Assembly (NCBI RefSeq): GCF_011745625.1
Contig: NW_027191506.1
Span: 1 to 64,000 of the forward strand
DNA length: 64,000 nucleotides
Reading direction: 5' to 3'
Origin: Cladosporium halotolerans
Lineage: Eukaryota
The notes under the pieces were generated by a model. That model was not told the origin of the DNA. It made no database searches and saw only the letters and a list, made by a program, of their open reading frames with translations. Made by a program: the position numbers and the translations under genes. Within the stretch, counting starts at the first letter, position 1. The number at the start of each line of letters is the position of its first letter. Positions 27,520-64,000 of this stretch are shown piece after piece.

Positions 27520-27874
27520 TGTCGCCAGCGATGCGGGATGTGCTTGGGAGAAGGGATGGGTGTGAAGCTGCAGATGCAAGGGGTTTGAACAAGAGACAGC
27601 AGGCACCGCGATCCTGATGTCGGCGAAGATGGTGGCAAGTGGCAAGCGGGTTGTGATGCGAAAGAAAGGAGAATTGGAAGAAGCGGAGAAAAAAAGGGGA
27701 GCAGAAACACATCGGTTTCGCGGTGGCGCGACAAACTGGAGATCACCTTGCGGCTGCGTGTCTTGGCGCGGCATAAGCTTGCTGCCCCAGGGGCGCGCGC
27801 TTGCTGCAGATTTGCGTGGCGGTGCAGAGATGCTCGCGCGAGTGAATGCGGCTGACGCAGGTCTTGTCTTGAAC

Positions 27875-32392: not shown

Positions 32393-32749
32393 TTCGTCAG
32401 ACAACGGACGTGTCACGGGCAGATTGGGCGCAGTGTCTTGAGGCTACAGGAAGAAGTTGAGGGGATAGTTTGCAATTCGACAGCAGTGGCAGACAGACTT
32501 TTATGGTCGCTCACGTAGGAGGTACTCGCGGGGCGTTGGCGTCTTGGCCGTGGCGGCAAGCGTCGTAAGCGTCGCGCGCGCTGTATCTGCCGCACTTGGG
32601 GGGCTGTACAACGCAACACCGCCCTACAACAGTGACATGGCCGGAGATTACCGCGTTGACAGCAGACTGATGCCCTTGATCGTCGCCCTTCCCCTCACCT
32701 CCTCCGCTGGCAAGATTTGCCATGCTCGTCGCTGCACTTAGCTTCCAGG

Positions 32750-35634
32750 CTCGCGCTGGCGCTCACCCTTCTTCCGACCTGGAGAACGTAAACCTGCAGA
32801 GCTGGACGCAAAACGGTTCTCGCAAGTACTGGTCCGTCCACAATGGGGCTTCTCCGATTTTGCCTGCCAGCCCGGATAGCTCACCGCGGCGACGACGGCG
32901 CGTGAACGCTTTACACGAGCAAGAAGAAGAACGACTTGCCTGCCGGGATAGCAACATCGTGTACGATGACACGGGGATCGATGATCTCGCCTCCACGAGC
33001 AATTGGATGCACCGAACAAACTGGGCGAAGAGGTATAAGGGTGTGGATCGCAGATTGCTCCTTAAGCTTCGCGGAGCCCCAGCCGCGGGCGGTCAGAAGT
33101 TACATCTGGGCCGATATGGACTGGAAGAAGCGTGCAGCAGCGAGTCTCACGAGACATGTTTGGTCACCACTGGTCGAGCTGTGGACCGGTTTTTCGACAG
33201 GTGTGAGGACACAATACGCCACACCGATCATTCGGTACTGTGCTGGCTACGTGGACAAATCATTGGTCGCCCATACAAAGCCCCGTTCAACCTTCCTGCA
33301 CGTAAAAAAACGACTGCGAAATATCGTGGAATATGGAAAAGCATGATCTTCTTCTATATGCGGCTCTCTTTGTTAGAAGTACGACTGCGCCGTGAATTCT
33401 TACACGTCAGACTATCAAAATCACAGAGCGAGGCTTGTCAACGGCTACTAGCTGCGCTAGAGCTGACGGCAGGTGGCTCTGCGACTTTGTCTTGCGATCA
33501 ATCAGACTCTGATGACGTAAAGACAGCGGGAAAAGCCATATCTCGATCGCAAACGGAGGGGCCGAGCGCGCCATCGAGAAATCTCCATCTGCGACCGCCT
33601 TCCATTGGCTCTGAATCAGGGGAAGAATCCTATGTGGATACACAAGTTGCAGTCGACTCCGGTTGTGACGACTCGTCTGATACCACCAGTGAAGAAGCTG
33701 TTGACGAGATGATCAGCTCCAGCGACACTGAAAGACATTCCTTGTACGCTGATCCGATGGGTCGAGACGAAGCCACGCTTGACAGGTCTCTCTCCCCTGA
33801 TGTTTCGCCCGCTTCTTTACCGTCAGGCATTCCCTCCCCCAGCGATGATGGAATCCAATGTACCTTTGACGATCTGGACGATGCCGTTGCAGACTTCTCC
33901 TATCATCTATGTACGGAGGAATTTGCAAATGGCCTCCCGTCATCAACGGCTGTTGTATACTTCAGTGGAATACTCGGCTTCACACCGGACGGTTCAACAT
34001 TCGAACGGCCAAGTAGGTATACTCCGAAATTGTCTGCTATAATCCACTGCATCCGCCTCTGCATGCTGGAAAGGATACTTCCGCGTTTCCCCCACCCCAA
34101 GATCGGTTGGCCGGCGAGACCACGTGTTGGGGGATTGAAGCGCTTCGCAAAGTTTCGAGACCGCTTCATGTGCCATGGCTGTCAAACACCTGCAGGTAAG
34201 ATTCTAGCCCTGAGGTCACATGGACGTGCGCTTTCCCGTGCCGATGGTCCGAACTTCCGGGTGCATTGGGGCAAAAGCGCCCATACAGTGGGCTGGGAAG
34301 GAGGTTCACTTTCCATGGATCAGCTGCGGAGATTGGGTAGAGAGGCCGTAGATCGGGCACAAAGTTCGATAAAGCGCCTACTTTACGGATACTGTCCCAG
34401 CTTCTCGCTTGGGAAGTTACATGATAGGATGTCAAACCATCGTCAAGGCTACTCCGTCACCGAACCGGCAAATAATTTCGAAAGAGCTTACCTTCAGCTG
34501 TCATCAAAAGCTTGCTTACATCCAGTCGACGGTTTGATGTCTTCCGACGTCTGGAAAATGGACGCTGTGCATCGATATTTCAAAGAGGAAACGAATTTGC
34601 TGCAGAACATCATGCTGATCATGTATCTTCGTGGTGGTCAAGCTCCCCGGACGACCGAGTTCTTGAGCATCGAATGCTACAACGGCCCTAGTACATCGCG
34701 TGGCATTTATATACATGGCGGATCGATCGTCTACGTTACGAGGCATTCGAAAGCGCGGCGTATGACGAACCAGGAATTCCAAGTTGCTCGGTTTTTACCA
34801 AAGGAGGATTCAGAACTTGTCGCAACATATCTCGCAATCATTCGACCGTTTACGGACATGTTCAATCGATTTTGTCTAGGCTATGATCGGGAGCGTCGTT
34901 TGATGTTCGCTTCGTCAGATAAGGTCGATAGACATTGGCAATCTGATGTCCTCACAAAGGCATTGAAGAGGCTGACTCAAGAAGTGTGTCTGCAGTCTTT
35001 CGGCGTCTAGATATATCGCCAGCTATCGATCGCGGTCACCGAGAGACACGTCAAAGATATCAGTCGGCCGTTCAATTTGCACGATGACAGGAGTATGGCT
35101 GCCGATATCGAGGTAGTATTCGCTTCGCAAAGCGGTCACAGACCGATGCAACGCGGGTTTAGCTATGGCATCGATGCTGCTTACCCAGATTCTTTACAAC
35201 CGGCTCTACTCAGGGTGTATCAATGGGTGTCGCGCCGTTGGCATGAATTTCTTGAGACACATGAAGGGCCATCGCGAAACGTGATTTTAAACACACCAGC
35301 ATCGCAACTTAACGGAGGCACTAAACGACGCATCTCTGATGGAAGCGAGGGCAAAGAAATTAAGCGCTTTCGTATCAGCGATGTGCGCCAAGACATCAGC
35401 GTTGAACGGACCCCGGGCAGAGGATTACTAGCTTCTGCTTTGCAGAGTAGGGCACAAAATCGCTACGATGAGACGAAACATCCTGGAGCCGATGAGCATC
35501 ATTCGGGTCTACTTGATCCAGAGCCCCTTTCAAGCAATGCGTTTCAAAAGAGGAGAGGGATCGCTGAGTTTTTTGAAGAACAAGGGAGATTGTCGAGGAA
35601 GGAAGTTTCTAGGCCCTTTGAACTTTCAGACTAG
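32750..35634 (+). pseudogene. 5'-truncated DUF3505-family gene with a tyrosine-recombinase-like domain and no helicase (copy A)
   Basis: ORFs 32722 and 35077 are in one frame, split by TAG at 35008 (probably CAG). Motifs are LQSW...YWSV, NWMHRTNW, YTPKLSAII, GGQAPRTTEF (R), HSKAR (K), IYRQ (R), QSGH (H) and FSYG (Y). Confidence 0.75.
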
Positions 35635-35692
35635 CATTTTGTAGCGTTACTTTAGTACATGATTCTTTAGCTAATGTCTTCACTGCCTAGGT

Positions 35693-38600
35693 GCACGTTC
35701 ATAATGCCGCGTTGTCCTCAGCCGCTTCTAGCCTTCGCAAGTCGACCTGACAGGAAAGACCCGACCGTGCGATCCGTACAAAGGGCCAAAGAGTCTTGTA
35801 ACGTATTTCGGAATGGCGCTTCGATTCGTCTCGTATTTTAGCAGGGTCGTCGCGCCCGACGAGTATCACTTCAGCCCGGCAGCGGATAACGATGGCGAGA
35901 CGATGAGACCGGAGGATATCATCCAGGCGACAGAAGAGCAGCTCGTGGTATGGAAAGAGATACACGAGATGGCAAAGCAGATGCGTATGAATGAGCAAAC
36001 AGGCACCGACGATGACGATGAAGAAGGCTACAATAGCGATTTAAAAAACCGCCTTCTACAATTATGGATGCTTATCATCTGCCACGCGACCGGTGCTCGC
36101 CGCTACGAATCGCCGCTGCTGAGTTTCTGCGCCATGCTGAGCATAAAGCCGTCCACAAAAAGTTGGATGGAGCCTGGGAACTTCAACAGCAATCTTTCGG
36201 CTATCATTTGGATTGTACAACTTCTAGTGTTTTACGACAGCGCCCTGAAAGAACAGCAGGGTTCAGGGAAGACGCTCAAGCTGGTGAAAGCCTACTGCGA
36301 CCAGTATGTCCAGCAGACCGTCGAGACGCCGATGGGAGAAATCCTTAGATGGCGTCTGTTGTTGTTCAAAGTGTCGGGTGCAAGCGTCGGAACTCATGAA
36401 GCGTCCTGGGATGAGCACGAAGAGGTACTGACCTATGAGGACACCGAACTCCGGATGGATCAAATCCCAACTCTACTTACATCCGAGTATCAGGAGTGTT
36501 ATCAGCTCCTTTACGATGATCTGATGCTCGGTCTCCAAAGCCTCCGTCGAATGAGCCCTCGTCTCCTCAAAGATGGCGTCAACGTCGACACCGTCCGTTG
36601 AAACTTCACCCAGCACAGAGACAACGCGACGGTTCTTAGTGGCACAGAAACCGCTTTGACGAAAGCAATTGAACGATCGGAACAACTGTGTCGGATTTTC
36701 ATCGTCGAGAGCGATCAGTCGCCCGGCGGATGGGCGTGGAGGGAGAGCGCAACGGCCAGTTACGAGGCCACCGTGCAAGAGTTTCTGAAGCGGCTCAGTG
36801 TCTTGATACACATCAGCGGCGGACAACCCGTGCGAGAGAGTGAGTTCTTTTCGATGACATACCGCAACACGCAGCGACGGCGGTCCATCATCGTTCGATT
36901 CGACCGTGTGATGGTTCACGTCCAATACCACAAAGGCCAGCAGCAAACCGGAACGTACAAAGAGAACGTGCGGTTTCTCGCCAATCCGATCGCGGAACTA
37001 ATGCTCGACTACATGGTCTACGTTCTGCCGCTGCGAGAGAGATTCCTGCGGCAGACTTCGCCTGGGTCCTTACTCTCTCCCTATCTCTGGGAAAAGGATG
37101 GAAAAGTGTGGCCCGAGGGTCATCTGAGTCGCTATCTAGAAGAGGCAAGCGTTCGGGCGTGCGTGCCACGACTTCACGTCGCAAACTGGAGGCAGATTTC
37201 GGTCGCCATCGTCAAAACGAAGTTCGCCGGCCACATCGAGTAATTCGATCCAGACGAAGGCGACGAAGACGGGGAAGAGACTGCTCCAATCATCCGAATC
37301 ATGACCGACCAGCGCAACCACAAGACGCGGACGGTGAACCGCGCGTATGCTAACCAAGCCGGAGCAGTGTTCAGCAACCTCTGGGATGGAAAGGTGCGGA
37401 TGGGCCTGCAGGCTTCCACTCTATGGCAGGACTTTTGGGGCGTGGAGGCGATCCTCAAGAGGAAGAAACGTGGGCGAGTCGGGCAAGAGTCTCGCTTGGC
37501 GAAACGGGTCGCCAAGGGCATCTATCGTCCTCGCAAGCCTTGGTCCACAGAAGCTCTCCTGGGAGGCGTGAAGAAACTATACGGCAACAAGGACGCAGGC
37601 TGGAAATCGACCGAGCAGGCGCAAGCTCTCACTGCAATCATGTCGTGGAATGAGCAGGTCGTCGTCATCCTACCCACGGGAGCTGGGAAGAGCTTGCTTT
37701 TCATGCTCCCGTGTACCCTGGCTAACGCTGGGATAACGATACTCATCGTACCGCTCGTCTCACTCCACGGAGATATGCTTCGGCGTATAAAAGAGTTGAG
37801 CATCGACCATCTGGAGTGGCATCCAGGCGAGACTCGAGAAGCCGCCTTGGTACTGGTCAGCGCCGAAGCCGCCTCGTCCAAGGATTTTATCAAATATGCT
37901 CGGAGGCTTATAGCAGAGCAGAAGCTCGATCGGATCGTGGTCGACGAGTGCCACCTAACCGTAATTGCGGCCGAGTACCGACCCAGCATCGTCGAGCTCA
38001 CAGCAATCCGGAGCCTGAGAACTCAATTTGTCTACCTCACAGCCACTCTTCCGCCATCTATGCGGGCAGAGTTCGAGGAGAGGAATTATCTGCATCACCC
38101 CACGGTAATCAGAGCGTCGAGCAATCGACCGAATATTCTCTACGTGGTGCGTAAGGCTGGTGCCCACAAAGGGAGCCTACTCGAACAGGCTAGTGTCGAG
38201 GTCGAAGATGCTTGGACGAAGTCTGCCTTGTTCGATCACTCTCGCGATAAAATCATCCTCTACGTTCGGACGTGCAAGGATGCGGACGACTTGGCAGAGC
38301 TGCTCGGTTGCAGCTCGTATACTGCCGAGAGTGGGACGCCAGCGGAGAAGAAGCAGATACTCGATCGCTGGATACAAGCTCCCGAGACGCCCTACATCGT
38401 GGCGACGACTGCTCTAGCCGAAGGGTTCGACTATCCGCACGTGCGACTCGTCATGAACGTAGACGAGCCGGAGTCGTTGGTCATCTTTGCCCAAGAGTCT
38501 GGTCGGGCGGGACGGGACGGGAAACGTGCATATTCGATGGTATTACTTCCCGCAACCTGGCAGCCTCAGGTCTCAGATGTTCCGTTGGACGAGCCGCACG

Positions 38601-39226
38601 GGACGAACAACTACAGAGATGACCCAACACTTCGGAAGCGTCACGACAAGGAAGCAGCGCATCGCTACCTACTGGGCAAGCAATGCTACCGGACGTCCCT
38701 GAGTGACTACTTGGACGTCGCTCGCCATCGAAGATGGTGCATGCCCGAAGATGTGCCTTGCGACATTTGCAAGGTGGCCCATCTGGACATGATCGAACCC
38801 GTGGAGAAGGTCGAGGAGGACGACACACACACAGGGCTTCAGCTCATCCAGCAAGAAAAGCTCCGGACCCACACAGAACTAGCACAGTATCGTCTGGACC
38901 TAGCGAGCTTGAAGGGAACGTGCTTGCTCTGCAGGACAGCCAGACAGGAATGAAACCATGATTTCTCGACTTGCCCACGGCGTTTTGACATCTTTGAAGA
39001 AAGGAACAAAGCCAGGCGACAGTTCGAAGAACGAGGGCAGAAATGGCTGCAGGCATACACAAGCTGCTTCTGGTGTCTGAATCCGCAATCGATCTGTCAA
39101 CAAGCGGAGCTGGGTAGCAAGGGTGGCAGAGGTTGCGAATACAAAGACATTGTACTCCCGCTCTGCTTCGGAGTTTTCGAGAGCGTTGAAGGGCTAGGGT
39201 GGCTTTACGAGCAGTTCGAGCGGGAG
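35693..39226 (+). pseudogene. 5'-truncated YR-like domain fused to a RecQ-type SF2 helicase and a Cys-rich C-terminus (telomere-linked-helicase-like, copy B)
   Basis: ORFs 35813, 36656 and 37301 share one frame broken only by point stops. YR motifs are GGQPVRESEF, YHKGQ, NWRQ and QRNH...RAYAN. Helicase motifs are LPTGAGKS, VVDECH, YLTAT, ATTALAEGFD and QESGRAGRDG. Cys clusters are CYR...CMPEDVPCDIC, CLLC and CFWCLNPQSIC. Confidence 0.88.
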
Positions 39227-39235
39227 CAGAGAGGT

Positions 39236-40609
39236 TGTGACGAGACGCGTCACGTACGGGTGCAAGCGCTAGTGTGACGATTGAGAGAGCGAATGGTGGG
39301 GTCGGCGAGTAAGCAGGTGGTTAGTGCAAAGACAGGCGGACGTGACGGAGAGCTGTGGGATGTATGGTTTCAACCTCGGTGCAGGAAGGTTGAGGGAAAA
39401 GAGCTGGATAAGGATGGAGGGAAAATGTATTAGAGTTGTAAATGTACTAGTCGAGTCTCTCTAGCGTGAAGTCAAGATTTTGGATTGAGGTAGTCTCAGA
39501 ACGCAACCGGTATACGATAAAATAAACGAGAGTGAGAGCTAAAAGAAAAAGTAGGAATAGACAAGCGGGGTGGAGGAAGCAAAGGTCCGAAGTTTGGGTG
39601 TAGAGGGAGTTGAGGGTGCACCAGAGCAGGGCTGAGGGTACGACGAGCGAGAGGTGGTAAGAGTGTGGAGTTGTGGATATGTCCGTAGGTGCGGCTCGTC
39701 GAGGGCGATAGGCTGGCTGGAGGGCTCCCGGCGGGTTGGTGTGCGTTAGCGCGGCTGCAGGAGCGTGCGCGGCTTGCTCGAAAGTCCGGGAGGGCGGACT
39801 GGAGTGGAGAAGGCATAGGATGCGTGAAGACGGAACAAATCGGCAAGAGGTTGACAAGTGGATGTTTTCGGGTGCAGCCGTTAGCGACAGGTGCGAGGGA
39901 GCGAAAGGGAGCAGAGGTGGTGGAGACGAGGGGTGCGGGGGATTGAGATTAGCAGGCAGATGTAGGGGAGGGTGGAGACTGCGAGCCAAGGCAGGCGGAT
40001 GATTGAGACGATTAGTATGCATTAGGGCGGAGAGAAAGGGGAAACAGCTGCAGGGCGGCTGAGCGGCTACGGGCTTGAGAGGCTGTGAAGCTGCAAGGAG
40101 AGCCGGGGGCTCGGGATAGGGAAGATGGTGGGACACCGAATGGTCGGGATGCCGGCGAACGGGGGCACTGAGAGTTGCATCGAGTGGAGCGGGGGCGAGG
40201 AACGGTAGGACAGGAATCAGGCGAGAGGAGGGTCTGATCAGTGCGAGAGGAGGAGGATAGTAATAGGAAGGGTAAGTTAGGATTGGAAGCAACCTTTAGG
40301 GGTGAGTACGGGAATGATAGAAGGCGGCAAAGGGCAGATTAGTGAGGGAGTCGCTTGAGATGGCAAGAATGGAAAGAGTGGCAGATCAGTGATCGATGAG
40401 GCAAGAGAGAGCAGAAACGCATAAACAGAGAAGAAGAGGTCGGAAAGGCGGAGACGAGGCAAAGATAAGAGAAGCATAGAGTTTTGGGTGACTGGTAAAA
40501 GAGGTAGGGCTGCGCCAGCATATAGAGAGGGGGTGGTATTGAGTCGGCAGGTTTGCAGTGTATTGGTAAAGAACTATTTGAAGACGCCATTGTGGCAGAG
40601 AATGTCACA
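39236..40609. mobile_element. ~1.37-kb noncoding segment with TGTGAC...GTCACA ends, possibly a solo LTR
   Basis: 8-bp inverted ends GTTGTGAC/GTCACAAC and a strong purine skew. It starts where the helicase gene is cut off. No TSD was seen. Confidence 0.4.
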
Positions 40610-47288: not shown

Positions 47289-49880
47289 ACTTGTGATATT
47301 CTATTTCTCTCTTTTTTTTTTTTCTTTGAGAGCTAGATTGAGGCAATGTTATCTGCTATCGACGCCCTTACGGAATAAGAAGGAGAAAAAAAAGATAGTC
47401 GCCTAATGTCACCGGTCATGTTAATGAATGTTTGCCTCGGTCTCCACGCGTTACATCGCCCTCGTGTTTACCAACTTGGCATTTTCTGTGAACTCCTATT
47501 AACGAGCCCGGTTCACTCGATTTAATTTTCAGATTTCGGTTCGTAGGTGCTCTGTAGTCGAGTTGCTTCTACTTTAAACATGTATACTGCCAACTTCGAC
47601 GGCGCCGCCGTATTTCACCGGTCACTGTTGCCCCCACTTTTCGTGTTTGCCTACCATGCTCGACACCAACCATCTCGTATGTTCTTTTCATCTCTTGCAC
47701 CCCATTCTCGCCTGCGGACACTCAGACCGCTGCCTGATGCGACGGGGAGAGTCTGACTCAACTTTTCGCCTGGAGACAGGCTATATATCGCTTTTTGGTG
47801 GACTTTTTGGTCTTGAGCAGATGTGCAGGTCCTTCAACGCCGAACAAGATGTGCGTCGCACATTGACCACGCTCGTACCCGGAATGCAGTGCGATCCTCT
47901 TGAATTTTTGGCCTGGTTCCCAAATGAAGAGCGATCTGTTATGGCTGAGCAGGCCTTTTCCTTCCACCCGCGGCATCGGGGCTGCCATCACTCCCGAGCA
48001 CACCGGCAGCTGCGCTGTCTCGTGCAATCTAGTACCGTGGCCTTCAGCGCTCTGTTCTCTTCATCTTGGGCTCTGAACATCCCCAGAACCCGTTCCTCTA
48101 CAAAACTTGTTTTCGGACACCTGTCGATGCAGCAGTTACCGTCACTGCTGTCCTGGCTCGCCGCACTCGCCCTGACCCTCGTTATCGTCTTCCCGGCTTC
48201 TGGCCCTTCGCCTCGTCTTTGTTTGCCAATCGTCATTTCGCACCCCTACGCCTGCCGACCCTGCCCATCAGCGACAAAGCAGGCGGCGGCAGCAGACGCC
48301 AAGCTTACATTCTCCCCACGCTTGCTGCGTTGACTACCCGTTTCGCGGAACGTCGGCAACGTCGATATTATTCACCCGTTCCACCCCTTCCTTTGGAATC
48401 TCCTTCAGTACTTTGCCACCAGATAGCAAGTGCCAGTGCTCCACGGCATACATGACATTCCTTTTAAAGCCGCTTTCTAGCATTCTGTGCTGTCCTGAAC
48501 TGTACCGACTTTCGAAGAATTCCCGCGATCGAAGCTCAACGACTTTAGACTTCGTAAGCGTCCCTTGTACGTGTCTAATAATCCAGAGCCGGATTCAGCT
48601 AATTGCGAGCAGTCAAGACGGTCGAATATGGGTAGTCGAAACGCTTTCGTCCTAAAATCTCTCCAACAACATTCATGGACGCGCGCCCAATTCACCTCCC
48701 GCAGCAACCTGCCTTGACGAGGTCTGAGATCAAGTTGTGCTCGTTGCAATTTGATCGTTTTCTGTCGCGTTATGCCAACTCCTTGTCGGCACTGAGGAAT
48801 CTGGCGCGTCTTGCAGAGTAGGCCTGCGAATCGGACGGTGTTGCGAGTGCATCCGCCTTGGTTGCAGATGCAATCTATCGTAGACGCATGGAGAATGGTC
48901 TTGCCTCAAGAGGCAAGGTTTGAAAAAGAAATAGATAAGAATGCAGAAGCTAAGGTGGTGGCTATAGCGAAAGACATGGCTATGCAAAAAAGTTGGTACA
49001 CGTGTCGGATGAAAAGCTAGAGGCTGCTGCACGAGAGCTGGCCGCCATCACAAGAGAAAATGATGATGGCTATACTGCGAGGGTGGCAGATATCTCATTT
49101 CTAGCCTTGCCACAGCCTTCATCAACAGGTCTACAGATGAGCCCGCAAGAATGGGCTTTGAAAGATGGTTTTCCTAGATAGCTTTGAACTTCGCCTCGAC
49201 CGCAGACTCGGATAGATTATGATTCTATGTTTGACGACCTTGAAAATGGATGAATTACACAGTCAGAAAATTTGTGGTCGTCAGGTTGATCCCATTCTCT
49301 AAAATCAACAATGCGAACTAGTCAGTGTAGAGCCAATATTACATTGTGCTGCGAAGTTTCGGTCCGGCTTCTGCCGATGGTTCTGCGACGTGTTCAGCAA
49401 GAAATTTTTATCTTGGGTCAGCTTCGGTTATAGCGTGAGCAAATTCTTTCAAATACAACGAAGAGAAACAGACGGCTGGTCTCGGCAAGCATTGGTTGAT
49501 GTGTTAATGGGATTAAACCTTCCTTTCAGTAGCCCGCTGGGATGGCTAACAAAAGCAGCCTGCAGACCTATTCCCTGAATCATCCACCCTGCGTCTTTTG
49601 CTAGTCCCATTTCGGTCTGCCGTGAGCGGGACCGAGCCATCGGACCGGTAGCAAGCCTAGAGCCATTACAGTGTAGTTGCCCCTTAGCATCTTTGAAGGC
49701 GCGATGGCCAAGGCGCATGCCCAAGAGACGCGCCCGTGTGTTGCCGTCAGGGATACACGGGCTCGCGTGGCTCTGAAGACGTCGGGCTTTGTGTCGTTGT
49801 TTTTGGCATCATTACGATTGCGATTCGTGGAAAAAGCCTCAATATTTCCAGGACGAGCCATCAAACGCCTTCTTTCCGAC

Positions 49881-51420
49881 ATGGACGTCTTTGAATTTCT
49901 TACTAACTTTAGGGTAGTTGTGTGCAAGCTGTGTCAGAGCGCTGCCTATCCATCAGCTATAGGTACGCATCTCCGGCGTTCACACGCACGGTACAACTCT
50001 AGTTCGGCATCGAAAATCGAATTCGGACTTTAATCAAAGGAATACCACCGAAGCTTTTGGAAATGTCTTTGCTTACCGCGTAATGAGCCGGTCGCTGTAT
50101 ATGCAATAGACCAGACACGGCTCCTCCATTTGCGCGTCTACAACGGGTTTGGCTGCAACTACTGTTCACTCGTCTCGGCAACGGTGGACAAAATACGCAA
50201 ACATTATAACGTCGCGCACACGCCGGAAAGAAGGAGTAGCGACCGACGTAAATCTTCTGAACCTCGCACTGTCCGTGAGCACTTAGAGCGGGAGCAGTTT
50301 GGAAAGAATACACATTGGGAGGCTGTCAAGTTCCAGCGCTTCTTTCGATCCGGACCTGGAATTTCTGGATCTCGTAACAATCAAGATGGGGACAGCCTTC
50401 GGACATGAGCTCGTCACAAGATGAACCAGGCGACAAAGAACTTACAGAAGCAACTCTGTCGCAAATGAAGTTTTCAAGACTCTTGATGCTCTCGAACTGG
50501 AACATGCACAGGGAGAGTCCGTGTTCCAACATGCCCCGACCCAGACGCAATAGTCTCCATGATTGGATAGAATTCGATGGCCGAGCTTTCTGAACGGTGT
50601 CTCTCTATACGAAGCTGCCTTATGCGACTGCCTGAAAAAAGTGAGCTAGTCCTATCCGAAGTTATTCTATCAATAGACCGTTTAGTATATTGGTCGAGGC
50701 TGCCCACGCTGCTGTCAAACAAGATAAGAAGAATTCTTCGCTCAAAATTGCATTAGCTCGTTTCCGCCCAGCAAGAGAGCATACAGCCAGCCTTTGATGG
50801 TGAAGCTCCAAAGGTCCACAAACCAATGCTGTGAGGATTAATGGAAGCGCCTTGTCTGCTTCGTCTGCCGATCTAGCGACTCCTATGAGGGACCACGGCT
50901 CCGACATCGATTGACTAGCCGGCAGACGGCCCTACTCGATGAGCTTCTCGCTGTCACCAAAGATTTGCTTGACAGACGCCCGGTAGGCGGGGGTCTTTCG
51001 AATGAAGCTATAGCGCCATACCTTGCAACATGGATAGACGACCTGTGTCTAGAGTTTTGTATCGCCGCACTTGGCCATCAGCTGAAGGCGGACATTTTTG
51101 AGAGCGTCGTATGCGGTGTCGGGAATTGATGCTGCCAGATCAACTTTCTTTGAGGCACCGAATTACATATCAAAACTATCTGATTATATCAAGATCGGCC
51201 AACTGCTTGTCCTCGAAAAGGCTGACTGGGGAGTGGAAAGCGGTATCGTCACAAATAGTTGGATCCTCTCGATGATGTGAGGGAGCGATTCATGACTATC
51301 AGTAAGTGTATACCATTTGGTTGGGCAGTGTCGATAAGATCATTTGGCAAGAAAGTCCGGGATACCGTCACATCTTTGGGGTACATTCAGTGGCCTGAAG
51401 ACGAGCAAATAATCTTGACA
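49881..51420 (+). pseudogene. Degenerate DUF3505-YR family gene, N-terminal half (copy C)
   Basis: MDVFEFLTNFRVVVCKLC...THLRRSH, GFGCNYC...RKHYNVAH, VKFQRFF, YISKLSDYIKIGQLLVLE and RERFMT...GYIQW. It has many frameshifts. Confidence 0.78.
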
Positions 51421-51499: not shown

Positions 51500-52170
51500 T
51501 TTCTTATTCGACCTCTTGTTTGGTTAAACTCGCCTTCGCCGTGTCCCGCCCTTCTTCCATATTGGATACATTCACGGTGCAGTATAGTGTGTCAGTCGGG
51601 GTCGACGGGGTCGTCTGATTGGGGAGCGTCCTCAGGTTTCTAGAGCAGCTGCTCGGCGGTGTAAGCGCGACGTCGGTGTATGATGGGTTGGGGCTGGAAG
51701 GTTGGATGCTGGAAGATTGCTTCTAGACGATAGCCGTGACCTGCTCCGAGACGATAGAGGTGACGTGCTGTTGAACTATGCTAGTGACCTGCTGTGGGAG
51801 ATAGTGACCTGCTGCTGAAATATGGCAGCGAGATGTTGGCAAATAGCCGCAGCGACTTGTTTATTGACACGATTCATGGCTTCACCCCAGATATACTCTG
51901 GACCTCATGTCGCACCACGTTGTTGACCTCGCTGCGCACTGTATCATTCACCTATTCCTACACCGTCTTCACGACCTTTTCCCGGATGGCATCTACTGAT
52001 GTTCTTTCCACGGCAATCTTGACTCTCTCGAACCACATTTCTCAGCTCATTCGATATGGTCTCTCTGATTTGTTCGGTGTCCGCTCTCTCGCTGATGGCA
52101 ACCTGCAGAAGCGCAAAGCGCTCATCAACAGAGCCGCCCACCAGCGACAGCTTTCAAGACTTGGTTCAAC
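51500..52170 (-). mobile_element. Degenerate LINE ORF1 fragment from the same family as the LINE at 1804
   Basis: SVDERFALLQVAISERADTEQIRETIS matches SVDGRFALVQEAIEQVPDIGQVKETVS. CAGGTCAC repeats and a CCCAACCCATCATACACCGACGTCGCGC segment resemble 2490-2640. Confidence 0.8.
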
Positions 52171-53573: not shown

Positions 53574-54039
53574 CTTAATGCAATGTGACAAGCTTATCGA
53601 CAAGCGCTTGTGATTGGAATGAGGTTGAGATTTAAGAATGCGGCCAAGCTGGGAAGCTACATTGATAGAGCGAATTATGTGGTTGACTGTGTCGTAATAA
53701 GTATGTCAGTTAGGCTAAGGTGAGCTCTGTCATCACGGTGACGTATGCTCCTGTCCCAGATCGCTTGCCTTGAACGTGGGTAGCTTGAGGCTAATCTGAT
53801 TATCATTCCTGACCATAACCAATTGGTTAGACTACTGCAAACAGACACAGGCGCACGCGTCACTACGCGGAGCGCGTCGATCGTTGTAGCTCGGTGTAGC
53901 GGACTATGCATTACACCAACTCACCCTCTATCACCCCATGTCACAGCGAACTACGTCGACAGCTTCCCACTTTTCGACGTTGGCGAGTCTGTACACAATG
54001 GCGCATGGCCAAATGCCGTCCTACTCAGCAACACATCTA

Positions 54040-55900
54040 TGCCGATGTTTGTCAGACTATCGCATACTCATCTGTCTCGGTTGCAATTATGCCGTCCCTC
54101 TTGCCAACCTTCGCAACTATGTACGGACACACCAGCGCGAGCGTGGCAGTGAAAGCGCCCGCGAGTGGATGCAAGATCTCTCGCGTTTCGACTTGCTCGA
54201 TCCGACTTGTGAGGCCGTGAAATTCCCACTTCCCACTGCTCTCCGATACCTGACCTTCCTGGGTTCGACGGGTACGCCTGTGTCGTGTGATCCTTGGCTG
54301 CACGTCAGCTTTCATCGATGAAAAAGCATCACCGACAAGCTCGCCCTTCAGACAAAAAGCCTGACCGAACGTGAGCTGCGTGCAAATGTTATCATCGGAA
54401 TACCCAACGACGGGTGTCGACCAGATGTCAGCACTTCTTTGTGCGAGGGCCACAGAGTGCATAGTTCTACGTGAGCGGAACAAGCGCTATGAACCAGCAA
54501 AGTACATCGAGCCAATCCCCGACGGAGTCGCCCGAGCAGCTGCCTCTAGGAGGCCAGATGCTGGAACATGTTCTAGCTGAGCTGGCAGCATCCGAGATGC
54601 AGCTCGAGTGAGCAGCAGACGGAATCTCGAGCGATGAGCCCTGAACCGAGAATATCGCAGTGGTTGCGGATGACACGATGGCCTCGATATCTACAGGGTC
54701 ACAAATCATCCCTGGCAGCTCCCCTCACAAGCCTTCCTATCGCGGGAGTCGGACCTTTACTCGACGTGTTTGTTGCGAGCTTGGACCGACTGGTCGATCA
54801 GGCGCGCGACTCTTTTTCGGAACAGAGAGTGAGTGTCTTCGACCAGGCCCTAATCAAGCGGGTCTTCCCTGAGCACAAAAAGCATCGGACTCCAGCCCTT
54901 CTTACGCTTCGAGGTCAGATATGTCGCAAGGACACTGGTATTTGGGCTTGGCTTATATGCTTTGCATATCAAACATTCCAACCTTGGGGGGACAGTGACC
55001 CAATGGCTGAACTGACTCACCGGATAACAAAGACGCAGGCTAGCAATTTACAAAATCTTACGAGCCTCGGCCGCCGGTTTCTTTGAGAGGATCGAACACA
55101 ACCGCAGATGATCAGACACAGATCTTACTCGATCGCACATGCTTGCTATTCTTTTTATCCTTGATCGATCGTGTGCTTAAGAGTGACCTCTTAGAAACCG
55201 TGGTGGTGGGTTCCCTAGCAGTCACCGGTATTGACGCGAAAAAGCAAATCGTTTGGTTGCCCGCAGATTTCACTCCGCTACTTTCAGGTCCAATCACAAT
55301 CGGTCAGATGCTAGTGATGCAGTGAAACGTAGTCGCTATGAAGCGCGGGAAGAGAACCTCTCCATCTGAGATTGTTACACCGGATGTACTCTAGACTCCT
55401 TGCTGGCCATATTTCCTTGCCACTGAGATGGGCTATCTGGTTGAGGGCTTATGATAACAAGATGAAAAGTGCTATGACAGTCGCAGGGACCTTCTGCAAG
55501 TCCGACAACGATAGCGCAGAAACATTGAAACGGAGCGCGGAAATTGCCTAATCCTATCTAGACCGGGTCGACTCCTTTCTCGAACGACTTTTGCTCCTCG
55601 ACCAAACAACCTGCGGACAGCCAGCGCGTGGCACAGAATTACACACGCTCTGCCATAGCAAAGGACATCTCGGGAGCCATCGAAACATCTTCGTCGAGCA
55701 GGGTCTAGTGGGTACAGTCACTGCATATCAAAAAAGCTATAGTACTACCGGATTCACAACTATTTACCTGCGCGAGTAGGGGAAGCCCACGCCTACTATC
55801 TTTGGGTATTCCAGCCCCCTTACTAACAATTGAAGCTCTTGGCGTTTCGTAATACTAGCGCACCGTCACCTTACCTCTGGCTTGCAGGGAAGAGTAGCTA
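54040..55900 (+). pseudogene. Degenerate DUF3505-YR family gene (copy D)
   Basis: YRILICLGCNYAV, ISQWLRMTRWPRYLQG, FTPLLSG.ITIGQMLV, CGQPARGTEL (catalytic-type R), RNIFVEQG and TAYQKS. It has many stops and frameshifts. Confidence 0.78.
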
Positions 55901-57928
55901 GAGCGCAATGCGGCTGTCAAAGGTACGCGAGCGGAAGTCTTCCATACACATCTGTCTACAGGCAGGTTGCGATAGCCATGTCTCGAGCACATCTTCCAGG
56001 CGCAACTTTCAAGCGCTAGCAATCTATAGAGCAGCGAGTGCTTGACCGTCAAGCTGCCCGCAGCTCCTGGCAGGCTGCATTGACGTATGCTCGCGAGGTT
56101 GGTGGCTGCGACGGTTATGTACACAGACAAGGGAACAGTATCGGAAATCAAATCCTTGACATCGATTTCACGGATTTGAAGGCTCTGCCATGGCACCACG
56201 CCAGAGGGCCCTTCCCGATCTTGTGAGCGTGACCAAGATTTCAAACAAACGAGGGAAAGGTATGCTACCTACAACTATTTCAGCCTTGAGAGCAGTGCGA
56301 AATTTTTACACAAGAGCGATAGGAATTGTTCAGATCGCAATCGTGTATCGTGATACGGCCCCTGGAGAAAGATTGTGAAACCCAATGGTACTCACGATCA
56401 GTACGCGTCTTGTTCTACGAAGAAATTTCAGGTTTCTGGCTATACCTATCGAGTTTACTCCTGAGCTGTGTCTGCATGACGATGGCCTGCAATATCTGCT
56501 ACATCAGGATATGCAATATGATACGTCTGTCGAAACATCAAGATTCTAAAAGAGCTTTAGCGAAGAAGAGACAGCTGTAAGGCCCAGCATACCAGGGGTG
56601 GGTTCAGCTATATGCAGAGGGAAGGCATAGCTAGGCAATTGGTTAAGGCGACGTGTGAGAACCGCGAGTAATGTCTCCTTTTAAATCCCTAGTACAAAGC
56701 TACTTCGAAGTCTGTTCGCCAGATGTACGACTCCGAGAGCTGAAAACCTGCATCACAAGTGCGGCGGCCGGAGTACGCGGCGATTCATTTACACTAGAGC
56801 ACCAACGTAAGGAATGTTACGAAACGCTACACAACCCTGCCGCAAAAGAAGGCCTTCCTTGACTACAGCTCACGCGATGACCTCTATATCTATATGGGCA
56901 CTGCCTTCTCGACTTCACTGCACTAGTTCGCAGCCAGATGTCAAGCCCGAGGGTTAGGGTTTTAGCCTTTAAGGGTTCATTGACTGAGTTATGAAGCTAG
57001 TCTACCTTTGCACCTGATCCAGCACGCGACAGAATGCGAGCCATTTGTTTCGGCTTTGAGATCTCTTCTAAGGAGGGGGGCACTTTCTATACATGATGGT
57101 ACCCTGAGAGAGTGTCACGGAAGGAGTTCGACGGTGAATGTAAAGGAGTTACCCTACCCACAATCCTACCCACAATCCTTGCGGGCGTTAGTGGTGTATA
57201 GCGCACGAGAGCGAAGGAAGGACGAGGTCGAAGGGGCAATGTCGCAGGGCATGAAGCGAGAGGAAGCAGAGAGGACTGCGTCGACGGTGTTGCAGAAAGT
57301 AAAAGCGTCGGTGCACGATTTCATGACACTACCCACAATCCTTCAAAGCACGAAGGGTTCGTTCCTTGATAATGTATGGGCGCACGGACCAGCGAAATTC
57401 GCGAGAGGGGGTAGATTCCATGAAAAACGAGGGGTAGGTGGAATGAAAAGTACTGAGTTGAGAGTCACGAAAATTTGCCAAACTTCAATTCGCCATCACA
57501 TTACTCGAAGAATTTTTCACACGGGTGTAATAGATGCTATCTTGGGGCTGTTGTGATGGATCGAAATCTCACAAGTCAAGTTTGAAGTTGCACCCGGAAA
57601 GCCCAGAATAAGGGTTAGGGTAGTGTAAGGCTGAACGGTCATGCTGTCACGGTCGGTAAGCGCGCGGCTAGAGCGCTTTTCGGAGAGCATACAGATATAT
57701 GATTCGGCGTGGAAAAATGCCGTCAAAAGATGCATAGAGGGCATCGGGCGTTTGATTGACTTGACCAGGTGCTGAGTAGATAGTCAAGCACTCGATCAGT
57801 AGAGAACACGAGAGCGTCCCACTTGCAGGGGGTGTGAAAATTTGTGCCAGGTATAGATACCAGGGGCGAGATAGCACTTTCTTGCAACGAGCAACTTGTA
57901 AAAGTCCCAGTATCTCACGCTAGGAGCC

Positions 57929-58135
57929 ATGGACACATTTGAGAAGCTATTCGTTCACTATCCGCAGTTTCAAGTCATCGTCTGCAAACATTGTCAATTT
58001 GCTGTTGTTCCCGGTCAGACAAAGGCGCATTTGAGGCAAAGCCATAGCGCTTTCGCATTGAGCGTCAGGAGAGAAATCGAAGCATTCGTGAACACACTCA
58101 CAGACGTTGCGCATCGACACGAAGAAGTCTACCCC
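57929..58135 (+). pseudogene. DUF3505 N-terminus (copy E), cut off by the AT-rich block
   Basis: MDTFEKLFVHYPQFQVIVCKHCQFAVVPGQTKAHLRQSH. Composition switches to CpA/TpG-depleted DNA near 58130-58160. Confidence 0.82.
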
Positions 58136-58654
58136 CCACGGGTCCCCGGTGAGACCGGGCCCTCCCCTACTTATACCGGTCCTCGGATAACCCCGTCGAT
58201 CCTTCGATTTTTACCTCGACGGCTATCGTAGCTACGGGGCTCTACCTATTTTTACTATATACCGGATTACTTAGACTATAAGGGAAAAATAAAGTCCCCC
58301 TTCTAGAGCGGATTATAGAGGCTAGAAAAATAAATAGGTCGAGGGAGCTAAGTATCCCGAGGCTAGATATTCCTTATATCTTAGCCGTCTTAATTTTCTT
58401 AGGCTATTCCTATTTTTTTACGGTAGTATAGGGTATATACTACTTATACCCTAAATATCTAAGCCGGAGAAAATCTAATACCTTTTAGAAAATTAGCCGA
58501 AGGATACTTAGGAGGCCTAGGGTTAAAGTACCTATAATTCCTTAAGTATATATATTTAGAGGGTAACTCTTAATATAATAAGCTTAGGGAGGTAAACTCT
58601 ACCTAGTATATAAGTATAGGTATCCTAAGTCTCTTACTTTTAGATATAGTAAGA

Positions 58655-59150
58655 TTAGGGTTAGGGTATATTTAGTATAATACTTAGCTAATTTTATCTC
58701 GAGCCCTCGATTTTTTTAGAGCTTAATTCTATTTTTCCTATATAGTCGAATACTAAAAGAGTCTAATAAAAATAAAAGCTAAATAGGAAAAAATCGGAGA
58801 GGCGAGATAAATTTCCGGTAAAATATCCCTTATAATTTAAGGGCGGATATTAAGGTTATAGCTTTATCTAGATCGATCTTAGAGATAGATATATCTCAGA
58901 AATATAAGCTTAGGGTAGCCCCGGTCCCCCTAGGGTAGTTTATAGATTTAAATATAAGGATATAATAATTATCTCTATTATACTCCGGTTAGAGGTAGGG
59001 TTAGTAAAGTATTTAGCTAATTTTAACTCGAGACCTAGATTTTTTAGGGCTTAGCCCTATATATCCTATATAGTCCTATACGGATAGAATTTAGGAAAAA
59101 TAACGGTTAAGTAAATAAAAATCGGAGAGACGAGATAAAATTCGATAGAG
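58655..59150 (+). repeat. Two diverged ~170-bp direct repeats (period ~335), each headed by a TTAGGG-like motif
   Basis: TTAGCTAATTTTATCTCGAG...CCTATATAGTC...AAAATCGGAGAGGCGAGATAAAATT (58684-58813) matches TTAGCTAATTTTAACTCGAG...CCTATATAGTC...AAAATCGGAGAGACGAGATAAAATT (59013-59142). Confidence 0.8.
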
Positions 59151-59254
59151 TTTTCTACCTTTTTTTTAAAGAAAGTATTATCTAACTATTACCTATATTT
59201 AGAAGATATATCCCGCTAAGTATTAAGAGATCTATAGGAATTATCTACTTTTCT

Positions 59255-62200
59255 TTAACCTTTCTTAGGCCTTCCTCTCTTATTAGTCTTTATCCTTTTA
59301 GGTCTTCCTCTTCCCTTCTTACTAGGTTCTCTCTTCGGAGTATTTTCTTTTATATTTAAATTAATATTAATCTTCTCTTCTTCTTCTCTTTCTTTTTCTC
59401 TTTCTTCCTCTTCCTCTTCTCCTTCTTCTTCTTCTAAAGATAGACTATCTCGATTAATATAAGATCTTTTAGAGTTAATATTAGATCTAGCTATACTAGA
59501 ATCTCTCTCTTTACGAGAATTAGATATAGATCTATTATCTAAAGAGCTATAAAAAGCTAAAGGCGGAGTAGCTAGTTCTAAATTATCTAAACTTAAATCT
59601 ATAGGATTATTATAAGTAGGAGATTCTAAATTAGTAGTATTAATAAAATCCTCTATTTCCTTATTTTTAGGAGGCGATTTAATATTATCTAAAGCTTTTA
59701 GATTAGTAGAATCTAATTTATTAGTATATTTATTAGTATCTAAAGAATTAGAGCTAGAATCTATGATAATTCGCTTATCTAAATTAGGTATATTCCTTTT
59801 AGAAGATAGGTTCTTATTTAATATATTAGAAGAGCTACTAGACGAGCTACTAGAAGAGCTACTAGTCGAACTTCTCTCTAAAATATCCTTATCCTTTATA
59901 GTAGTAGGAGCTATAGAATTAGCGTTAATATCTAAAGATTTAAAGCTAGAGCTAGAGCTAGAGCTAGAACTAGAACTAGAACTAGAGCTAGAGCTAGAGC
60001 TAGAACTAACCCTAGAATTAGATTTTAGTAGATCCTTAGGATTAAAATCCTCTATTATAGTATCTATAGTAATATCTTTATCTAAATTAAAATAATTAAA
60101 GTAAATTTTAGAATATTCTAACGATCTAATAGTTATATCTCTAGTTTTATTACTAAAATAGTTCTCTTCTCTAGCGTAGTTTAGATTAGACGTTAAGCTA
60201 GATCTATTAGCTAATATATCCTCTATTCTATTAGGTTCTTTTCTTTTATTATTATTATTTTTAGTAGGACTTAGTAGGTTAAGATTATTATTAAGAATCT
60301 TTTCTTTAATTATATAAGTAATTAAATACCGATAAGGCTTTAGGGTTAGACCTTTACTAAAGTATAGTTTAGTCTCTCTAAAAAGTAAAATACTTAATCT
60401 AGTAGAACTTATTAAAGTCTTATTATTTTTTAAAAAAAGCTTAGTTTCGATAGTTTTATAGTTTAGGTAAGTAAAGTTAAGATAGTCGATAAACGGTCTA
60501 AGGATAGTAATATAATATATAACGACTCTAGTAAGTCGAGGAGGTAGATATCTGATATTTTTATTATCTAACTTAGTAAAATCTCGACTTTTACTATAGC
60601 TAGTATTAATAGCTATTAAGTTAGACTCTCTATTAAAAAAGATATTTCTAAATTTACTAATATTACTATTTTTATAATTTAGAATAATAATTTCTTCTCC
60701 TCTTAGAGGACTACTAGTTAATAGATAGATATTTAATACTAGTAATTCTAGAAATCGATCTAGCTTTTTAAGATATTCCTTTATATTACTTAGGAGGTTA
60801 TCTCCTCTATTAAGGAAGTTATTAATAAGGGTATTAGGATCGAGAAAGCGCTCGATAAGTATATCTCTAAACCTACTTAGATAAGTAGTAGTAGATAGGT
60901 TATAGTAAGGAGTTCTATTATCTATATTATCGTCTATTCTCGAATAGTCTATATCGATAGTATTATTATAAAGGCTATCGTTTTTAAAGAGAAGTAACTC
61001 TCTAAAGAGTAAACTCTCTATATTAGTTAAGATATTATTAAATAGATTTTTTAGTCTAGGTATATAAATATTAATATTATCGATAGCGATCGTATTATTA
61101 TCGATCTCTCTAATCGGTTTATAAGAGCTAACTATTTTATAATTATAATATTTCAATTTATTCCTAATATAATATAGTTCGCTAAAATAGTTATTAGAAT
61201 TAATACTTAGAAGATTTTCTAGAGTACTTTTAAAGAATAGAGTAGGATCTTCGATATAATCCTCTTTACTATAAATCTTATAATTTAAATATCCGAGAGT
61301 ATATAATCTACTATTATATATAATAGCCGAAATAGCTTTTTCTAAAGTATCTTATCTTTTAAAACTATTAGAAGTCCTTTCTAAACTTCTTATAATATAG
61401 AAAGTTAAGGTAGGATTATTAAAGTCTCTATTAGATAGAAGGTCGACTTCTAACTCTATAGAGAGAAGTTTATTAAAAAGTTTAAGAATAAGTATCCTTA
61501 TATTATATAATTCTTTAGGATTTAAGGTATTATCTTTACTATTAGTTAGGATTTCTTTATAATATTTTAGGTCCTCTATAATATTTAATATATCTTCGTT
61601 AATAATAGGCGTATTATAAATATCTTTAGATTTAGTACTAATATTATAGATATAGACTAGTAGTAAGCTAAATTCTCTAAAGTAGGATCTTTTCGTTTCT
61701 TTCTCTAAAGCTTTAAAAGGTCTAATCTCTCTATTAGTAGAATTAGAATTAGTATTATTAATAAGTATTCTAGTACTTAGAGATAATAAATCTATATCTA
61801 AGGATATTTCGTCTCCTAAAGTAATAGTAAGATTATAGAGTATATTTAAAAAGGTATCTTTAGCTTCTAAATCTTTATAGATAAAATCGTTAAGGATAGA
61901 TAGATCTTTTCCTTCTAAGTATTTATAAAAATTAGTAGTTCTATTAAGGAAAGATCCTTCTTTATTAATATTAGTAATAGTATCTTCCTTATATATAGTA
62001 GAATTAGCTATAGTATTATACTCTATATTGAAGTTATTAATTAGATCCTTAGAAGAAGGATTATTTAAATTAGATCTAAGTCTTAAGTTAGAGCTCCGAT
62101 TAGAGCTATTACTATTAGTTATATTAGTATTAATATTAGGTAGCTTAGGTATAAAGGTTATAGTCCTATTATATTTAAAACCTTTAATAATAGTAAGAGG

Positions 62201-62778
62201 GATATCTTCTAATATATTAGGATTCTTAATATTACTAATACTCTTAAGCTTATATTTATCGATTAAATATATAGATACTACTTTATAATTAATATTAGTA
62301 AAAGAATCTACTTTAGATTTATACCCTTCTAAAGTTAGAGGTAGGTCTTTATAATAATATTTATTAAATTCTAATTTTTCTAGATCCTCTAAGGAATAAA
62401 ATCCTTTATTAGTTATAAAAGGCTCTATAGTATTAAGAATTAGATTAGTAGATTTTATATTAGTTTTATTATTAGAAAGATAATCTTTAAGGTGATTTTT
62501 CTACGAAAATATTAGTAAAAGGACTTTTTAATAAATTAAAGAATAGATAAACTTACTTTTAGGTGGTTTTTTATAGTATTATAAGTAGGATTTATATATA
62601 TTTTACACTTTCGGCAAATTATTATCTTTATATCTTCTAAATATAATATAGGAGTATTAGGTAGACCTATAGTAGAGCTAGGTTTAATTTTATTAAAACT
62701 ATCCTTAGTATAAGGCTTTAGATCTTCGAGAAGATTATTAAAATCTACGTTAAAATAATTCTTAATAAGGTTCGACAT
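59255..62778 (-). pseudogene. Full-length DUF3505 C2H2 + YR-like + AT-hook gene (copy F), ~1155 codons, 2 exons, one internal TAA
   Basis: Exon 1 is 62778-62557. The intron 62556-62501 reads GTAAGT...TACTAAT...TAG. Exon 2 (62500-59255) is in frame with the 633-aa ORF. Hand translation finds only one internal stop, at 61352-61354. Motifs are ICRKC...NHLK|KNH, SSPLRGEE, YSKSR, PYRY, ANRS...NYARE and GRGRPKR...RGRPKK. Confidence 0.85.
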
Positions 62779-63643: not shown

Positions 63644-64000
63644 TCCTTTATCAGTCTCCCCGATACGACTCTATTAAATAAAGTAGGAGATAATCTAATA
63701 GACTTAGACTACTTTAAAGATCTTAAGAAAGTCCCGTACTTTCTAGATAGAATAATTACGCCGGGAACTCCGTATAATACTAAACTACTTAAAGGACTAA
63801 AAGATAATAAACTAATCTTTAAATCTAATAAAATAGAGAAGTATAATAGGGATATTAATCGATTTCTAGAGTACCTTACTCTAGCTATCCTATTATTTAG
63901 CGGAGGTCCTTTAAGAGCTCCCGAGCTAACTACTATAATATATAAGAATATAGAGTCGAAGAATCGCTCGCTACTTTATAATAAAGATAATAACCTATTT
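63644..64000 (+). pseudogene. CpA/TpG-depleted YR-family fragment (copy G), running off the window
   Basis: The open frame reads ...IEKYNRDINRFLEYLTLAILLFSGGPLRAPELTTIIYKNIESKNRSLLYNKDNNLF. This is homologous to FLELLVLNIYLLTSSPLRGEEIIILNYKN in copy F. Confidence 0.8.

Follow-up and report, generated by a model that had tools for sequence, protein, structure and literature searches.

A decayed gene for a predicted tyrosine recombinase-RecQ helicase of Cladosporium halotolerans and a candidate one-ended mobile element behind fungal telomere-linked helicase genes

The stretch of DNA analysed here (the window) consists of the 64,000 nucleotides at positions 1 to 64,000 of contig NW_027191506.1 in the C. 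halotolerans assembly GCF_011745625.1. It holds a relic of a gene in which a region resembling tyrosine recombinases (YR) precedes a RecQ-type helicase, an arrangement akin to the one seen in fungal telomere-linked helicase (TLH) genes, together with other pieces of the same family. The features, by position in the window, are:

32782..35634, + strand: copy of a helicase-less subfamily, 5′-truncated (without OrsD), with R/K/R/H/Y kept and one stop, at 35008
35703..39226, + strand: YR-RecQ (TLH-type) relic of subfamily A, cut at both ends; its DNA is 96.5% identical to G000:C677, its protein 81% identical to that of the intact copy on C451
36599, 37241 and 38951, + strand: three internal stops of this relic, with one more near its left break, at 35729
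35732..36376 (approximate, placed by offset), + strand: remnant of a predicted all-helical core-binding-like domain (the corresponding part of the C451 model, range 45-590, aligns with XerH, IntI and lambda Int in their N-terminal domains)
36389..37441, + strand: predicted tyrosine-recombinase catalytic domain, covering the 'TLH domain', with stops at 36599 and 37241; fold taken from the intact paralogue
36833 (R), 36932 (K), 37190 (R), 37319 (H) and 37346 (Y), + strand: putative catalytic residues of the window copy
37568..38575, + strand: RecQ-type SF2 helicase core with motifs I-VI, stop-free (Pfam, RECQ5 match, motifs)
38744..39226, + strand: Cys-rich C-terminal tail (CDIC, CLLC..H..C, CFWC..C..C), with the stop at 38951, about 35 codons short
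39227..40560, + strand: purine-rich (69% A+G) 3′ tail from another TLH subfamily, 81% identical to C101:5410-4447
49540..51420, + strand: decayed 5′ half of a subfamily G copy with a compound 5′ end
54034..55758, + strand: strongly decayed family copy, with profile matches in shifting frames
57146..57179, + strand: tandem 12-nt terminal units of subfamily C
57329..58138, + strand: subfamily C copy, with its 5′ end and the beginning of its OrsD domain
59255..62500, - strand: RIP-saturated copy without helicase; R, K, R and Y kept, R at the His position
63800..64000, + strand: RIP-saturated YR fragment that extends beyond the window; the 5′ end of a subfamily A copy cuts it at C441:64750

A reading made from the letters of the window before this analysis (the sequence-only reading) had described the relic as a recombinase-helicase fusion in a single frame interrupted by point stops, without any frameshift. 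The + frame does run in this way from 35693, with stops only at 35702 (TAA), 35729 (TAG), 36599 (TGA), 37241 (TAA) and 38951 (TGA), and it stays open past the last of these up to about 39275. The claim of one frame stood, while the idea that this frame is the whole gene did not. Homologous DNA in C677, the closest paralogue, extends over 35703-39226 only, which means that the copy lacks its OrsD/C2H2 N-terminus (about 295 codons) as well as the last 35 or so codons. The stop at 35702 falls on the left break, and the DNA beyond 39226 belongs to a different subfamily, since the C101 segment that it resembles lies directly behind the end of a TLH-type helicase. With the stops read as X, the proposed RecQ-type core was recovered by Pfam (DEAD, E 1e-13; Helicase_C, E 4e-13), its best solved relative was RECQ5 (E 2e-26, residues 613-948), helicase motifs I, II, III and VI were found, and the Cys-rich tails noticed earlier are present as CDIC, CLLC and CFWC. 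No Pfam family matched the part of the window copy that precedes the helicase. RIP was rejected as a clear cause of the decay because only 12 of 34 polarised changes were of the RIP type (G>A or C>T), while C677 has 34 such changes among 46. The copy in the window is a dead remnant, truncated on both sides, of a fungal gene that exists in multiple copies.

An intact paralogue is found on contig C451, where a stop-free frame of 1495 codons encodes, in order, OrsD/DUF3505 (16-127), an unannotated middle, DEAD, Helicase_C and a Cys tail. The same genome has at least 42 family or RecQ matches (39 of 71 candidates were scored), with at least seven subfamilies whose distant members are 17-38% identical in the YR domain. 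Two of the matches are ordinary host RecQ genes on the large contigs C13 and C35 (652 kb and 616 kb). The family copies, most of them broken or RIP-hit, are all on repeat-rich contigs of at most 78 kb, among contigs with a recorded size, and on these small contigs they have metal-resistance genes as neighbours. Among the matches listed, the nearest named homologues come from Cladosporium, Hortaea and Friedmanniomyces.

The middle of the intact paralogue was modelled with AlphaFold in two versions, of 686 residues (pLDDT 85.0) and 350 residues (pLDDT 92.6). The sequence-only reading had called this region YR-like, and the structural comparison agreed with it: for both models, ranks 1-28 against 48,161 chains were YR or TopIB folds, including the derived YR folds Ndc10 and MrpR. 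The best match was XerA (Z 11.4, rmsd 2.9, 165 aligned), with XerH at Z 9.7, Cre at Z 9.0 and the first unrelated row at Z 4.8; XerH, IntI and lambda Int cover both the helical and the catalytic domains of the model. The protelomerases TelK and TelA were absent among the best 50 structural matches. In the ESM Atlas the nearest clusters were unnamed, and a Phage_integrase cluster at 0.84 is a lead only. Several results speak against the YR reading. Foldseek against PDB and BFVD returned nothing at E 0.001, although integrases topped the lists (best XerH, E 0.011); sequence profiles assigned no Pfam YR family to any of 13 members, and a PDB profile search retrieved 0 sequences at E 10; and the box II His (HxxR) is mostly absent, the residue three positions before the second Arg being unconserved in most of 57 diverse rows. 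On the strength of the models, the middle domain is predicted to fold as a tyrosine recombinase.

The roles in the R/K/R/H/Y set were attributed from the order of the residues, their conservation and the secondary structure. In the 57 diverse rows the R is conserved in 54, the K in 55, the second R in 55, the H in 50 and the Y in 54; some subfamilies have Arg at the His/Trp position. The Tyr, both Arg and the Lys do not vary across 13 copies, from the genome and from metagenomes, that are 17-38% identical. Intact homologues without the catalytic residues would have spoken against the sequence-only reading; all five residues are present in 104 of the 107 full-span homologues among the 120 listed. 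Six pairs of diverged copies gave dN/dS values of 0.024-0.078 for the YR catalytic domain, no higher than those of the helicase (0.038-0.10); the close pair formed by the window copy and C677 gave 0.25. The YR domain is under purifying selection. Its catalytic segment lies just upstream of the helicase, in the position of the TLH domain of about 250 residues.

That recombinase and helicase are parts of one protein was borne out by the relatives. All 103 homologues with at least 150 residues past the YR domain have the helicase (108 of the 120 listed overall), and intact YR-helicase frames exist in C451 and in three metagenome contigs. A comparison of the YR and helicase phylogenies, possible for the 44 of 57 rows with both domains, gave congruent trees that have 23 of 41 splits in common; no strong helicase split contradicts any of the 15 strong YR splits, and the distances within the two domains are correlated (rho 0.76, the best of 999 permutations reaching 0.22). 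The YR-RecQ fusion is old and has been inherited as a unit. The same reading had also held that the family has forms with and without the helicase, from two copies that it named A and F. These were taken to be the copies at 32680-35634 (+) and 59255-62500 (-), and both match the middle domain only. Relatives of the 32680 copy make up a separate subfamily with the helicase in one of the 120 listed homologues and in one of 93 long ones, while the five catalytic residues are kept in 110 of 113 full-span members. A further helicase-less subfamily of this genome has its own stop about 30-55 codons after the YR domain. Because of this stop and of the one helicase in 120, truncation was dismissed as the sole origin of helicase-less forms in these two subfamilies; some YR-only copies are truncations nonetheless.

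Several traits link the family to the TLH genes. The TLH domain was reportedly defined by Rehmeyer in 2009. M. oryzae TLH1, F. oxysporum TLH/TLHcr, B. cinerea BcTLH, S. pombe tlh1/2 and the U. maydis gene have, in the accessible parts of their descriptions, the same order of C2H2, TLH domain of about 250 residues and RecQ, the domain being placed between the other two (bioRxiv 2024.02.27.582403). The first C2H2 motif of C451, C-x2-C-x11-H-x4-H, fits the TLH pattern Cx2-3Cx8-14Hx3-5H, and the second differs in its Cys spacing from Cx2-5Cx11-16Hx4-5H; the window copy, having lost its N-terminus, has neither. Homologues carry automatic names such as 'tlh1' and 'telomere-associated recQ-like helicase'. 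Two members named 'tlh1', from Colletotrichum, are helicase-less, and these names are indirect evidence that S. pombe Tlh1 shares the YR region. As described in the text available, TLH genes also have a long low-complexity tail and lie in arrays with truncated units, as in Fusarium, like the copies studied here. The canonical TLH proteins of Magnaporthe, Ustilago and Metarhizium were absent among the 120 best matches listed per protein search and the 20 clusters. In contrast to the TLH papers, the copies here are on small repeat-rich contigs without a telomere array on them ((TTAGGG)3 arrays occur on 5 of 691 assembly contigs, none with a TLH copy), and a helicase-less subfamily is present, a form that the accessible TLH literature does not describe. 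The element in the window is very probably a member of the TLH family.

To define the ends of the copies, the upstream DNA of 28 copy starts was compared, which gave 16 copy-versus-copy breaks in seven subfamilies. CTA is found at offset 0 or 1 in 9 of the 16 breaks (chance 1.9%) and within 6 nt in 13 of 16 (chance 11%). Copies of the same subfamily are not independent; counted per subfamily, these numbers become 4 of 7 and 6 of 7. Subfamily G starts with CCTG or CTG, and one E copy is without CTA. In 5 of the 7 subfamilies, at least one copy has a palindrome with a score of at least 7 that begins 14-19 nt inside the end, compared with 27 of 400 random windows; subfamilies F and G have no strong palindrome. 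TTAGGG occurs within 300 nt of the end in 4 of 7 subfamilies (chance 5%). C451 and the metagenome contig L071 have an end of like design, placed by the motif and not by a homology break. The fuller copies begin at a sharp, conserved CT(A) end. According to the available text of the Magnaporthe study (PMC1635262), the ends of TLH genes in M. oryzae begin to differ at either the first or the second C of CCTAACCAGTAATA, and at the boundary HAR-D contains a palindrome of 23 bp and HAR-F contains GGGTTAGGG; the palindrome would be about 17 nt inside if one HAR-C unit precedes HAR-D (its Table 1). The upstream boundary of TLH genes (CCTAAC unit, palindrome and TTAGGG) is thus found in fuller copies here and was lost from the window copy. 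The copies are dispersed and have a defined terminus, as transposable elements do, and this terminus is the 5′ one only.

The 5′ ends interrupt the sequence that lies before them. Eight junctions were examined, six of which cut TLH frames, one a TLH 3′ flank and one a Trk transporter gene, of which the assembly retains HMM positions 398-497 only. The far flank of the C677 element is unrelated repeated sequence, and neither a target duplication or empty site at this element nor a fixed 3′ end common to five subfamily A copies was found. Its left flank is single-copy. A joint across the element appeared in none of four read runs searched; the flank was present in one of 15 runs, and apart from X15 the runs share at most 18% of words. 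For the stack of B and H copies, no remainder of the host sequence turned up elsewhere, a result of no weight because the contig stops; several stacks run to contig ends. Neighbouring copies have the same orientation in 20 of 24 pairs (hand tally; p 0.0008). The decay of the copies is not purely polar since 5′-truncated copies, including the one in the window, exist.

The recombinase-shaped middle and the sharp, conserved end of the intact relatives suggested that TLH genes are self-spreading elements. Mobility in some form is probable. That the mobile unit is a recombinase-helicase element with one defined end is an evenly balanced proposal, and in equal measure the window may hold a dead fragment of such an element, which would spread by itself in fungi and underlie the genes called 'telomere-linked helicase'. 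We are more tentative in extending this to TLH genes at large as a class of eukaryotic mobile elements with a single end, in which CT(A) is joined to a new site and everything distal is carried along. In the proposed mechanism, a protein composed of C2H2/OrsD, core-binding, tyrosine-recombinase catalytic, RecQ helicase and Cys-tail regions would bind the palindrome just inside the 5′ end and nick at the terminal CT through a 3′-phosphotyrosine link. Strand exchange would follow with a target sharing little beyond CT, with a preference for telomere-like CCTAAC sites and the ends of other elements. We infer binding, nicking and strand exchange from established YR chemistry. A single end would be used, and the fused 3′-5′ helicase would migrate the junction or support onward copying; these two steps are among the weakest parts of the proposal. 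Everything downstream of the end would be carried along and the sequence previously there lost. Such events could be survived near telomeres, which may be why TLH genes sit at chromosome ends and point outward, and inside accessory regions they would build head-to-tail stacks of cut copies. Helicase-less members would keep the recombinase and rely on a helicase in trans.

The one-ended mechanism would account for the outward-pointing M. oryzae TLH genes with ragged telomeric ends (PMC1635262, as far as its text is accessible), the Fusarium arrays, the strain-specific invasion of Botrytis, where, in the accessible part of the report, one strain has 14 TLH copies and two strains have none, and the tandem end units. 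Weighing on the other side, later ectopic recombination also leaves a missing far flank, and it is to ectopic recombination that the accessible part of the Magnaporthe paper attributes its one-sided nests. Stacks running to contig ends hide the far side, and the 5′-truncated copies and the deviating G and E ends do not follow the pattern.

Ectopic recombination producing one-sided nests would equally fit a two-ended YR transposon of the Crypton or Starship kind, in which a 5′ 'captain' excises a circle between CTAAC-like direct repeats and reintegrates it, the helicase being an accessory for circle replication and the 3′ end lying further off or having been erased by later deletions. Here, as in the Starships described in the accessible text of PMC10104507, the YR gene comes first and points inward, has a catalytic Tyr, is RIP-sensitive and has metal-resistance genes nearby. 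In five subfamily A copies CCTAAC occurs shortly past the stop. However, two of these are alike beyond CCTAAC though their left flanks differ, and in the other three CCTAAC is followed by the start of another element; moreover, no flank pair at C677 rejoins into one gene, and in Magnaporthe the 3′ side stops at variable points of the telomere (PMC1635262, accessible text). A second end or direct-repeat pair of the Starship type was not found at C677, the other stacks reaching contig ends. The element also differs from Starships by its fused C2H2 and RecQ parts and by R/K/R/H/Y without the box II His; an assignment as a Starship captain was rejected, as it has no DUF3435 (PF11917) match and the only DUF3435 matches of the genome are on C246. 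We consider the two-ended transposon unlikely. An enzyme of the host is less probable again: the YR domain would serve telomere maintenance as a resolvase, or as a protelomerase-like or TopIB-like nickase acting with the helicase in telomere crisis, and copies would spread solely by ordinary ectopic recombination between subtelomeres. The telomere-like motifs at the element ends, the TopIB structures among the fold matches (Z 6.6-7.7, with ResT weakly at E 0.4) and the induction of S. pombe TLH genes in telomere crisis, as given in the available part of the literature, would all suit such a function. They have to be set against the coexistence of seven or more subfamilies so distant in their YR domains, the broken or RIP-hit state of most copies, a patchy distribution between strains, sharp CT(A) junctions that cut unrelated genes without homology, and a genome already provided with two ordinary RecQ genes. 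Very improbable is a non-catalytic, Ndc10-like DNA-binding module that tethers the helicase. Ndc10 is among the fold matches (Z 6.2-6.4), and the mostly missing box II His and the Arg at the His/Trp position of some subfamilies point that way, but the invariance of Tyr, both Arg and Lys across such diverged copies does not, and the catalytic residues are kept in a subfamily with no helicase to tether.

Other known systems resemble the element in part. Cryptons, DNA elements of small size in fungi, carry a single YR gene and have two ends with short direct repeats, and they are not known to have a helicase; compared by description only, they are like the element in their single YR gene and unlike it in helicase and ends. 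The Xer, Cre, integron and phage integrases have a His-to-Tyr spacing of 9. The YR of the element has the same spacing and the same core-binding and catalytic fold as predicted from the models, for which these enzymes were the best structural matches, but it is 8-15% identical to them and differs by large insertions and by the fused helicase and zinc fingers. AcademH and KolobokH transposases are of the DDE type and work on terminal inverted repeats. Their elements, fungal DNA transposons encoding an SF2 or RecQ helicase (PMC3627910, PMC10799480, as far as accessible), have a helicase in common with the one described here and differ in having a DDE transposase where it has a YR. Nimaviruses encode a eukaryotic, C2H2-bearing YR associated with telomere-repeat sites (PMC10871703, accessible text). 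Likened by description, these YRs may be taken as a precedent for telomere-motif targeting; they belong to large viral genomes inside telomere arrays, and that text describes no RecQ fusion. The Pyrenophora ToxB unit was considered on account of a DUF3505 fragment near its 5′ end, and no link was drawn because its ends, TGTC and CTATAT, differ.

The function of TLH genes was still called unknown in the accessible parts of the 2006 and 2024 literature, where the TLH domain has no assigned function and the word 'recombinase' occurs 0 times in the available text of the Fusarium preprint. A search conducted largely outside the subscription literature found no paper linking TLH or DUF3505 genes to a recombinase. 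The feature is real. It is probably a new form of mobile DNA that joins YR and helicase, and possibly a class of its own should the one-ended step be borne out. With a recombinase active site and a defined DNA end, the function of TLH becomes directly testable. If the proposal is true, a YR-helicase superfamily would be added to the eukaryotic transposons, and there would be a mechanism for the speed with which gains, losses and truncations arise at the chromosome ends and in the accessory regions of fungi. A single-ended element would then rebuild subtelomeres, truncate genes and make the TLH-to-telomere domain itself, and the 'distal subtelomere' common to many fungi would be selfish in nature rather than a structure of the host.

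Several 5′ ends in the telomere-linked helicase (TLH) family of Cladosporium halotolerans are compound, so that the end of another subfamily begins directly after 12-66 nt of the end of the first. The end pieces are in tandem in some cases. The compound 5′ ends, in the window and on contigs of the same genome (C-numbers), are the following.

Window 49540-49559, compound 5′ end
Window 57146-57179, compound 5′ end
C451:50300-50250, compound 5′ end
C110:4338-4326, compound 5′ end
C37:9563-9629, compound 5′ end

This organization resembles the Magnaporthe HAR-C arrays (PMC1635262), and the ends of the elements may be preferred targets. On C441, the continuation of the window's contig, a perfect tandem duplication of 830 bp (72262-73919) begins at the 5′ end of subfamily B, with a shared CT as the joint; it could also be an assembly error.

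On the sense strand, purines make up 74-78% of the 3′ tails listed below, which are AT-rich and RIP-like even downstream of open frames. Two of them are on metagenome contigs (L-numbers).

L070:8060-9782, purine-rich, AT-rich 3′ tail
L072, purine-rich, AT-rich 3′ tail
C441:69760-70790, purine-rich, AT-rich 3′ tail
C677:4320-4770, purine-rich, AT-rich 3′ tail

A sharp RIP block occupies window positions 58200-64000 (GC 22-38%, composite index >1.2), and long open frames within it escaped stops. In the public run X1, a related gene (L077:2455-5950) has a contig depth of ~340x vs 3-8x on the flank, values that are depths only and not a copy number.

The window includes pieces of LINE-type retroelements (endonuclease, RT, RNase H) at 1-6100, 10955-12022 and 51553-52318, one of which is an inverted partial copy. 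A metal and ion handling cluster (8650-32246) encodes PHO4, ferric reductase, multicopper oxidase and heavy-metal P-type ATPase proteins, as identified by Pfam, and a probable cation-efflux gene was recognized by eye at ~27337-27600. An ATPase related to the heavy-metal P-type ATPase adjoins a TLH copy on C41. The cluster resembles Starship cargo; a captain was looked for on the window's contig and none was found.

An internal piece of a subfamily A gene recurs downstream of helicase-less copies.

Window 35634-35703, site where a subfamily A piece comes after a helicase-less copy
C544:39760-39829, the same arrangement
C195:450-683, the same arrangement
C113 and C54, the same arrangement, at 3′ ends

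Three of the six cuts located within TLH frames map to a short stretch directly before helicase motif I, a clustering that was noted post hoc.

C441:64750, cut just before motif I
C544:36592, cut just before motif I
C544:28372, cut just before motif I

The recombinase part stays whole at all three, and their clustering may reflect a hotspot or selection for products that retain only the tyrosine recombinase.
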